The notes below the pieces were generated by a model. The model saw nothing but the letters and a program-made list of their open reading frames with translations. It did not search any database and was not told the DNA's origin. A stretch of DNA of 64,000 nt from Escherichia phage BF17, in the sequence record MW822008.1. One strand, written 5' to 3'. Made by a program: the position numbers and the translations under genes. Position 1 is the first letter of the stretch; each line of letters begins with the position of its first letter. This document shows, piece after piece, positions 41,470 through 41,898 of the stretch.

Positions 41470-41898
41470 ATGGCATTTAACCAGCAGTTTAACCCAGCGA
41501 AGATTACCAATTCCAAACAGGCTCAAGGTATCTTCCCTATAAAAAATATACAAAAGTATAAAAGTAATAACCAACCTATATACCGTAGTTCTTGGGAAAA
41601 GGATATCATGATATCTTTAGACAACAACCCTGCGGTTATAGAGTGGAGTGTAGAGCCATTTAGTATTCCTTACGTGAATCCAGTTGATAATGCAGTTCAT
41701 CAGTACTGGCCTGATTTTTATGTACTTTATATTGGTGCAGATGGTAAGCAACATGCTCAAGTACTGGAAGTTAAACCGTACAAACAATGTCACATGGAAA
41801 TGGCTAAATCCAAGAAAGACAAAATCACCGTTGCGATTAACCAATCAAAATGGGCATATGCAATGGAATTTTGCAAAAATAACCGGATTGGAATTTAA
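41470..41898 (+). CDS. hypothetical protein with possible PD-(D/E)xK nuclease-like motif
   Basis: YWPDFYV...[10 protein letters not shown] resembles a PD...(E)xK restriction-endonuclease-fold core. Confidence 0.3.

Follow-up and report, generated by a model that had tools for sequence, protein, structure and literature searches.

In a 64,000-nucleotide stretch of DNA from Escherichia phage BF17 (record MW822008.1; the whole stretch is called the window here), we examined an open reading frame (ORF) at 41470..41898 (+) that encodes 142 amino acids (aa). Judging by homology, this ORF is almost certainly the ortholog of T4 gp4, of the head-completion nuclease family, and it is incomplete, with the 15 conserved residues that end the family's proteins lying in the +1 frame at 41885..41932. 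A second gene of the window, encoding a small tail-fiber-like protein, is interrupted in the same way. Comparison of the sequences makes it very probable that full-length proteins arise by a +1 shift at both the gp4 and the fiber sites, and the fuller explanation that we favor, a gp4 ortholog whose complete enzyme would be produced through a Ty3-like +1 frameshift at a "hungry" CGG codon, seems probable. The identity and fold of gp4 are already known, having been predicted in 2005 and shown experimentally in 2020; the incomplete ORF annotated for gp4 and the conserved recoding proposed here are the new part.

A sequence-only reading of this DNA had taken YWPDFYV (residues 79–85) and an ExK-type motif, in the stretch at residues 97–106, as signs of a possible PD-(D/E)xK nuclease, and both motifs are real. 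The ORF matched PF08722, the TnsA-like endonuclease N-terminal domain of the PD-(D/E)xK family, with E=8.6e-17 (61.9 bits against a cut-off of 26.5), and PHROG 218 "head closure" with E=1.2e-39, scores far above chance; weaker matches to PHROGs labeled "endonuclease" were also present. BLASTP aligned the protein over its full length with gp4 of a Tequatrovirus (Shigella phage Sf23; 30% identity, E=4e-15), and tblastn detected homologs in 2301 phage records; T4-like phages, cyanophages, and Rak2-like jumbo phages are among them, and many of the records carry the annotation "gp4 head completion protein". Residues E43, D82, E100, and K102 were invariant both in an alignment of 27 homologs that included T4-type gp4 and in one of 43 homologs, so that the nuclease call is borne out by the domain match, the catalytic residues, and the TnsA-like fold described below.

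In all relatives inspected, the gene is flanked by the tail-tube paralog on one side and by the same downstream gene on the other, and its location among structural genes, also part of the sequence-only reading, was confirmed by the tail-sheath, tail-tube, and virion structural genes nearby. Over the 4.1 kb around the ORF, identity was 99.9% with Escherichia phage Ecwhy_1 and about 85% with 121Q and PBECO4, members of Asteriusvirus with genomes of about 350 kb. Using TnsA and T7 endonuclease I as its templates, a fold-recognition study from 2005 had already put T4 gp4 in the PD-(D/E)xK superfamily (PMC1189080). The gp4 proteins of T4 and cyanophages are known to have nuclease activity and to be needed for head–tail joining, and the activity is required for morphogenesis, according to Benler et al. 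2020 (Virology 543:7) as that study is cited in PMC7824862 and PMC11895373. In T4-like phages, gp4 is a small single-domain DNase without which DNA-filled heads are not joined to tails. By orthology, the Asteriusvirus protein would be expected to have the same nuclease activity and head–tail joining role. Among the functions guessed at from the motifs, that of a packaging factor came closest, as the protein is a likely ortholog of the T4 head-completion nuclease, whereas the strict synteny of the gene across these relatives leaves a homing-type endonuclease unsupported.

Searching PDB by sequence, whether with a single query or with a profile, yielded no more than marginal matches (T7 endonuclease I at E ~1, aligned through the E and PD motifs), and a fold comparison was therefore needed. 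The AlphaFold2 (AF2) model of the 142-aa ORF (predicted local distance difference test score, pLDDT, 88.6) contained a helix at residues 41–52 with E43, a strand at 83–88 after P81-D82, and a strand at 94–99 ending at E100-V-K102. Foldseek returned the TnsA catalytic domain as the top match in PDB (1f1z_A; probability 1.00, TMq 0.56, with 0.56–0.57 over the TnsA matches), and the top named matches among the viral predicted structures of BFVD were "Head completion nuclease" (TM 0.78–0.83). The full-length relative P0004 served as a proxy model for the fused protein, the two sharing 76% identity overall and 14 of the 15 residues of the C-terminal segment. Its AF2 model (pLDDT 89.2) had a helix at 41–52 with E43, strands at 83–88 and at 94–101 with E100 and then K102, a helix at 115–137, and a strand at 141–145. 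The C-terminal segment formed this last strand (mean pLDDT 93 over a 10-residue block) together with a short helix and is beta-4 of the core, which the 142-aa model lacked. Thus, the structure prediction and fold comparison proposed along with the motifs support the alpha-beta-beta-beta-alpha-beta nuclease fold and do not refute it, with the last strand present only in the +1-fused or unshifted form. That this final strand is absent from the annotated ORF and encoded in the +1 frame had gone unremarked in the sequence-only reading.

The alignment of 27 homologs revealed where the annotated protein falls short. All homologs from outside Asteriusvirus run on as ...NGLEFKxITExxLYKK, and the window protein and its Asteriusvirus relatives stop short of this ending, which the +1 frame nonetheless encodes in full, both in the window and in 15 other distinct haplotypes. 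The two groups differ by a single inserted C (41884): Asteriusvirus reads AAT AAC C GGA TTG, with frame 0 ending as ...KNN-RIGI*, and the out-groups without the extra C (the P0004 contig, 7t3, Hallingskeid, Muenster, EJP2, GAP32, and RaK2) read AAT GGN. In P0004, 7t3, Hallingskeid, Muenster, RaK2, and EJP2, the stop of the unshifted gp4 also overlaps the start of the next gene as ATGA. Joining codons 1–138 to the +1 segment gives a protein of 153 aa that matches PF08722 with 76.9 bits over positions 1–85 of 85, close to the 77.0 bits of T4-type gp4, compared with 61.9 bits over positions 1–78 of 85 for the annotated ORF; the PHROG 218 score rises from 136.7 bits for the 142-aa protein to 155.9 bits (E=1.5e-45) for the fused one. 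The single-domain architecture of gp4, about 150 aa covering the whole of TnsA_N, is reached only with the +1 segment. The 142-aa protein of the sequence-only reading is therefore a real ORF but not the whole gene.

We compared 16 distinct Asteriusvirus haplotypes of good quality, drawn from phage isolates, NCBI/ENA assemblies, and Logan metagenome assemblies of many laboratories and many countries, with a pairwise nucleotide divergence of at most 23%. Purifying selection acts on both the frame-0 and the +1 part of the gene. Upstream of the site, the variable positions were distributed over the three frame-0 codon positions as 25/15/104, a pattern that points to purifying selection on the frame-0 reading. 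In the downstream part, the +1 codon positions of the six variable sites were distributed as 1/0/5, and all six were synonymous in +1 while all six changed an amino acid or the stop in frame 0; chance would make six out of six synonymous with a probability of 5e-5 when every substitution is given equal weight and of 3e-3 when only transitions are counted. Compared with the unshifted P0004, the +1 segment showed seven nucleotide differences, five of them synonymous and two within one Ile-to-Val codon, leaving 14/15 aa identical, and its residues F142 and E147 were invariant in the 43 homologs. The frame-0 tail RIGI* is not conserved as protein: it varies between I and V, and its stop is lost in phage A4 (L006, 301..756), where TAA has become CAA, a change that is synonymous in +1. 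Because the frame-0 stop is removed there, gp4 of A4 is annotated as a 151-aa read-through protein (P0001).

Two records, CMSTMSU and SD-6_S16, were left out of the haplotype set; within gp4, one of the two has an N-terminal frameshift and the other an internal deletion, extra indels that are probably assembly errors. In a further protein (P0014, 120 aa, from SD-1_S14), an internal deletion takes out the ExK strand. Scans for the site pattern returned 121Q alone from IMG/VR, and one true match along with two chance matches (L031, L033) from metagenomes.

Conservation at the nucleotide level locates the frame change. The 15 nt AAT AAC CGG ATT GGA were invariant in the 16 haplotypes while 78% of the upstream third positions vary, and the A-run upstream is itself variable, being AAA or AAG depending on the haplotype. 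Because the A-run is not conserved and the upstream variation is synonymous in frame 0 and not in +1, the frame change must fall at AAC/C/GGA. The codon at this point is exceptional: no other sense codon is as rare as CGG across the 58 non-overlapping window ORFs of 120 aa or more, where it occurs once in 17,390 codons, and that single occurrence is codon 139 of the gp4 gene. In the same ORFs, the CGG trinucleotide appears 46 and 120 times in the other two frames, and its depletion as a codon is far stronger than that of other rare codons in the window (AGG 21, CCC 14, CGA 46). An independent 49-kb region of phage Sharanji had only one to two in-frame CGG in 13,979 codons. The sole reader of CGG in Escherichia coli, tRNA-Arg(CCG), is a minor species. 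With CGG so rare, the shift site would therefore put a "hungry" codon in the A site, overlapped by the +1 codon GGA. Several marks of frameshifting are thus found together: two overlapping ORFs in frames 0 and +1 whose fusion equals a full-length homolog, a +1 segment under selection, a conserved site, and a slow A-site codon.

We detected in-frame CGG in only 3 of the 87 window ORFs of at least 40 aa, gp4 being one of them. Another is the ORF at 13239..13430, which ends as ...AGT ACT CGG ATC TAT TGA and is overlapped by a +1-frame ORF at 13393..13929. Conceptual fusion of 39 codons from the ATG at 13302 to 169 codons in the +1 frame, with C13419 skipped, gives a small tail-fiber-like protein of 208 aa. 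When this fused protein was used as a query, 18 records of the 121Q type matched it in two pieces in different frames. In phage A4, the ortholog is one uninterrupted 209-aa ORF ("putative tail fiber") that matches residues 1–208 in a single tblastn piece, so that A4 has the gp4 shift site but no shift in its tail-fiber gene. The site ACT_CGG_A is identical in the window, 121Q, PBECO4, Sharanji, JNE01, and Turkey5; the last two are only about 70% identical to the window in amino acids and have different flanking codons, yet they keep ACT_CGG_A, with the frame-0 stop three codons on. Public records show this gene as two ORFs (gp507 and gp508 of 121Q), and PHROGs 29689 and 32568 hold the halves as separate families. 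Frameshifting in the gp4 and fiber genes was neither annotated in the records inspected nor reported in the searchable literature. On the evidence of both sites, the gp4 gene should read join(41470..41883, 41885..41932) and the fiber gene join(13302..13418, 13420..13929).

The third in-frame CGG (50085-50087, in CAG CGG GAC) was set aside as uninformative, being codon 13 of a 109-aa ORF (50049..50378) within a doubtful N-terminal extension. The first 28 residues of that ORF are not protein-like and are followed by internal Met codons, and its annotated start is probably too far upstream. The window itself is a mosaic. Its tail-fiber region (13250..13950) agrees with 121Q at 100% identity, and Ecwhy_1-like phages have nothing that matches it closely, and its gp4 region (39500..43600) is 99.9% identical to Ecwhy_1 as against only 85% to 121Q, which suggests from sequence that fiber cassettes are exchanged between Asteriusvirus lineages.

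We propose that a one-base insertion splits gp4 in Asteriusvirus and that the 153-aa enzyme would be made only when the ribosome shifts +1 at AAC_CGG_A. Peptidyl-tRNA-Asn would occupy AAC in the P site, with CGG in the A site, where the need for a minor E. coli tRNA-Arg would cause a pause. During that pause, Gly-tRNA(UCC) could pair with the overlapping GGA, an out-of-frame binding of the Ty3 type for which no re-pairing in the P site would be needed. Translation in +1 would then add strand beta-4 and end at the UGA that overlaps the AUG of the next gene. Ribosomes that decode CGG would instead add RIGI and stop, and the resulting 142-aa protein without beta-4 would probably be unstable or inactive. 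The same NNY_CGG_A device may join the two ORFs of the fiber gene at 13419. We infer from these features a ribosomal mechanism of the Ty3-like class, along with whatever efficiency and regulatory purpose it may have, such as keeping a nonspecific DNase scarce or late.

Phage-encoded tRNAs could contribute to such a shift. We found no tRNA genes in the window, and phage Sharanji, of the 121Q clade, has seven: Thr(UGU), Asn(GUU), Met, Ser(ACU), Arg(UCU), Ser(UGA), and Gly(UCC), none of which reads CGG. The Asn and Thr tRNAs for the two P-site codons (AAC and ACU) are phage-encoded in both clades, among six to seven tRNAs, and this supply of P-site tRNAs is suggestive. The tRNA-Gly gene was absent from A4, JNE01, and Turkey5 at the sensitivity of BLAST. 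Phage fEgEco12, a 99.3% match to the window over the gp4 region, also lacks it, as described below, and we rejected a phage tRNA-Gly(UCC) as a universal requirement because of its absence from fEgEco12, A4, and JNE01/Turkey5. The tRNA-Ser of Sharanji (L036, 9471..9562) has the anticodon ACU with an unusual A34, and the Sharanji paper describes a tRNA-specific adenosine deaminase encoded by the phage. Conversion of A34 to inosine, should it take place, could let the tRNA-Ser read AGU, AGC, and AGA, which hints at decoding changed by the phage. A bolder idea, which we hold tentatively and consider somewhat unlikely, is that CGG_A has been turned into a dedicated +1 "shift codon", purged elsewhere (one to three in-frame per 14,000–17,000 codons) and kept at NNY_CGG_A in at least two late genes. 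Its efficiency would be set by phage tRNAs and rise during infection, giving a virus-controlled switch that times or limits a toxic nuclease.

Several observations weigh against a Ty3-like shift in these genes, or at least against an efficient one. Both trans-frame proteins are known here as predictions from sequence. The case for +1 coding at the gp4 site comes from 48 nt with six variable sites, and third positions vary less in this segment (5/15) than upstream (104/133); some other constraint must therefore also act there. The tRNA-Gly(UCC) gene was found in 23 records of the 121Q/PBECO4 clade and UE-S1 only, and none of the six tRNA genes of fEgEco12 (two Ser, Met, Asn, and two Thr) is for Gly (PMC13070987). 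We found no significant RNA structure at the gp4 site (z=0.79, with weak covariation), no Rfam match there, and no Shine–Dalgarno (SD)-like sequence upstream of either shift site. A stimulatory element as in programmed +1 frameshifting is thus missing, and such an element is not obligatory for the rare-codon class. Re-pairing in the P site would be poor, with 2/3 pairs for AAC to ACC and essentially none for ACU to CUC; because of this, an efficient slip of the prfB or Ty1 type is excluded, and the efficiency of the shift may be low. The lack of a stimulatory structure, Rfam element, or SD-like sequence and the poor P-site re-pairing also make a Ty3-type event likelier than prfB-type slippage.

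The 142-aa protein might be the sole functional product, as would fit with every public record inspected annotating the frame-0 ORF alone, with the confident AF2 fold of that ORF, and with an extra, noncoding constraint suggested by the reduced third-position variation. The +1 segment would then be kept for another reason, either as a downstream initiation region or because there has been too little time for decay. We regard this as improbable, since the segment has three-base periodicity in +1 with 6/6 changes synonymous, a pattern with which the P0004 comparison agrees (five synonymous changes and one conservative I-to-V codon), its F142 and E147 are invariant in 43 homologs, and the frame-0 stop is dispensable, as its loss in A4 shows. 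Moreover, the downstream gene lies in frame 0 and not in +1, and a second, unrelated gene has the same arrangement. Another possibility, to which we give only slightly more credence, is that the full-length protein arises through a different event: transcriptional slippage or editing that takes out one base, a prfB-like stop-driven shift at AUU_UAA_A, or slippage on the A-run. The product would have the same length, and the window does have an A5 run before the site and UAA after it. Slippage on the A-run was rejected because AAA varies with AAG, and polymerase slippage is unlikely with no homopolymer longer than 2 nt in the invariant site. The stop-driven shift at AUU_UAA was also rejected, as A4 is without the stop and the constraint on the four codons before UAA preserves GLEF in +1, not the frame-0 reading RIGI; the second site, in addition, shares only the NNY_CGG_A core.

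There is very little chance that the extra C reflects an error of sequencing or assembly, or that it marks a recent pseudogene. The poor-quality records CMSTMSU and SD-6_S16 do have other evident indels in gp4, but this C recurs in 16 good haplotypes, whose isolates and metagenomes come from many countries, and the index of a public collection lists the 142-aa proteins P0002 and P0003 in 226 and 74 blocks, respectively. AACCGGA is, moreover, not a homopolymer, and the purifying selection on both gene parts argues against decay. Still less credible, to the point of being nearly dismissed, is a mobile homing-type or selfish endonuclease, or a defense nuclease, that lies among structural genes by chance. 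The TnsA-like and T7 endonuclease I-like fold does also occur in transposases, and the weaker PHROG "endonuclease" matches would fit such an origin. Strict synteny in all Rak2-like and Asteriusvirus relatives, orthologs in 2301 phage records that include the T4-like core set, the lack of associated DNA-binding or intron/intein context, and an architecture that, as in gp4, is a single domain of about 150 aa all speak against it.

Comparison with known systems helps to place both the protein and the proposed shift. T4 gp4 (formerly genes 50/65; PHROG 218) shares with the Asteriusvirus protein full-length homology, a single domain of about 150 aa, the pattern E...(P/M)D...ExK, a full PF08722 match once the +1 segment is included, and a location among morphogenesis genes. 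It differs in gene order, which is 53-4-2-3 in T4, whereas the Asteriusvirus gene follows tail-sheath and tail-tube genes, and the +1 interruption is absent from T4, cyanophages, and other Rak2-like jumbo phages. Tn7 TnsA (1f1z, 1t0f) and T7 endonuclease I (1fzr, 1m0d, 2pfj) have the PD-(D/E)xK core in common with the ORF, but their sequence similarity to it is marginal (E ~1), and the ORF is without the TnsA C-terminal domain, transposition partners, or evidence of junction-resolving specificity.

For the shift, the closest parallels come from outside bacteria. The yeast element Ty3 (GCG_AGU_U) shifts with no P-site re-pairing, Ty1 (CUU_AGG_C) has a rare Arg codon and a +1 Gly codon, and the two shift at rare Arg or Ser codons (PMC5009743). 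Both elements resemble the gp4 site in having an A site taken up by a slow, rare sense codon and a shift near the 3′ end of the upstream ORF, and the Arg/+1 Gly pair of Ty1 is the same as at gp4. They differ in being yeast elements, whereas here a phage and its bacterial host are concerned, with AAC and ACU in the P site and no 3′ stimulator identified, and the product would complete one small domain instead of adding a polymerase. In glass-sponge mitochondria, +1 shifts occur at CGG_(A), with an extremely rare codon, and at UGG_(A), with a C or T inserted directly 5′ of GGA, and have been read as Ty3-like and as compensating for an indel at the level of translation (PMC5009743). The local CGG_A architecture is alike, and the difference is that between mitochondrial ribosomes and tRNAs on the one hand and two late genes of an E. 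coli virus on the other. E. coli prfB (CUU_UGA_C) is a case of bacterial +1 recoding for an essential full-length product, but it has a stop codon in the A site, a P-site slip with good re-pairing, and an upstream SD-like stimulator, none of which was seen here. Listeria phage PSA reportedly also uses +1 recoding for an essential full-length product, with a stop codon in the A site and P-site slippage with good re-pairing.

Coordinates of the two interrupted genes, their proposed shift sites, and associated features in the window
Feature	Position	Strand	Remarks
Predicted gp4-type nuclease gene, frame-0 part	41470..41883	+	Codons 1-138, ends ...EFCKNN; from homology, fold, and selection
Catalytic residue codons (predicted)	E43 41596-41598; P81-D82 41710-41715; E100 41767-41769; K102 41773-41775	+	
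Proposed +1 shift site AAC_CGG_A	41881..41887	+	P-site AAC (Asn138); A-site CGG 41884-41886; skipped C41884; first +1 codon GGA 41885-41887
Frame-0 tail CGG ATT GGA ATT TAA (RIGI*)	41884..41898	+	Would be the product of non-shifting ribosomes
+1-frame segment, predicted strand beta-4 and short helix	41885..41932	+	TGA overlaps ATG (41929) of next gene
Downstream gene, 185 aa, PHROG 16202, function unknown	41929..42486	+	Start overlaps stop of the +1 segment (ATGA)
Second gene, frame-0 part	13302..13418	+	39 codons (MAQQIF...NIVST); AAGGA ribosome-binding site 6 nt upstream
Second proposed +1 shift site ACT_CGG_A	13416..13422	+	C13419 skipped; GGA 13420-13422; frame-0 TGA 13428-13430
Second gene, +1 part	13420..13929	+	169 codons (GSIDGEDSS...IRAGV*); PHROG 32568 "tail fiber protein"
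Predicted tryptic junction peptide of fused fiber protein			NDGFNIVSTGSIDGEDSSLSDSVIASFGTNK
Predicted junction peptide of fused gp4			NNGLEFK

The neighborhood of gp4 contains further genes whose labels deserve caution. Directly upstream are two adjacent tail-tube-like paralogs, at 39587..40363 (PHROG 4542) and 40375..41469 (PHROG 13438), and the counterpart of the gene just upstream of gp4 is labeled in the Muenster record as a putative baseplate wedge protein (HHpred). Labels of the 185-aa protein encoded downstream conflict among records, which call it "terminase small subunit", "heat shock protein", or hypothetical. A low-complexity protein of 181 aa (43051..43596) has the PHROG label "Hsp70 heat shock protein", which looks unreliable, and no Pfam match.

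In about 35 published Asteriusvirus genomes, and in the PHROG and UniRef families built from these, gp4 is truncated and the fiber gene is split into two "hypothetical proteins", which are annotation errors that can be corrected. Yeast retroelements and some mitochondria offer well-documented natural +1 shifts at a sense codon that involve no P-site slip, and documentation from bacteria or their viruses is scarce. If the shift proposed here is real, two conserved sites in a culturable E. coli phage would provide a tractable bacterial model for the Ty3-type mechanism. Together with the purge of CGG, the phage tRNAs for the flanking codons suggest that jumbo phages may reshape decoding in the infected cell.

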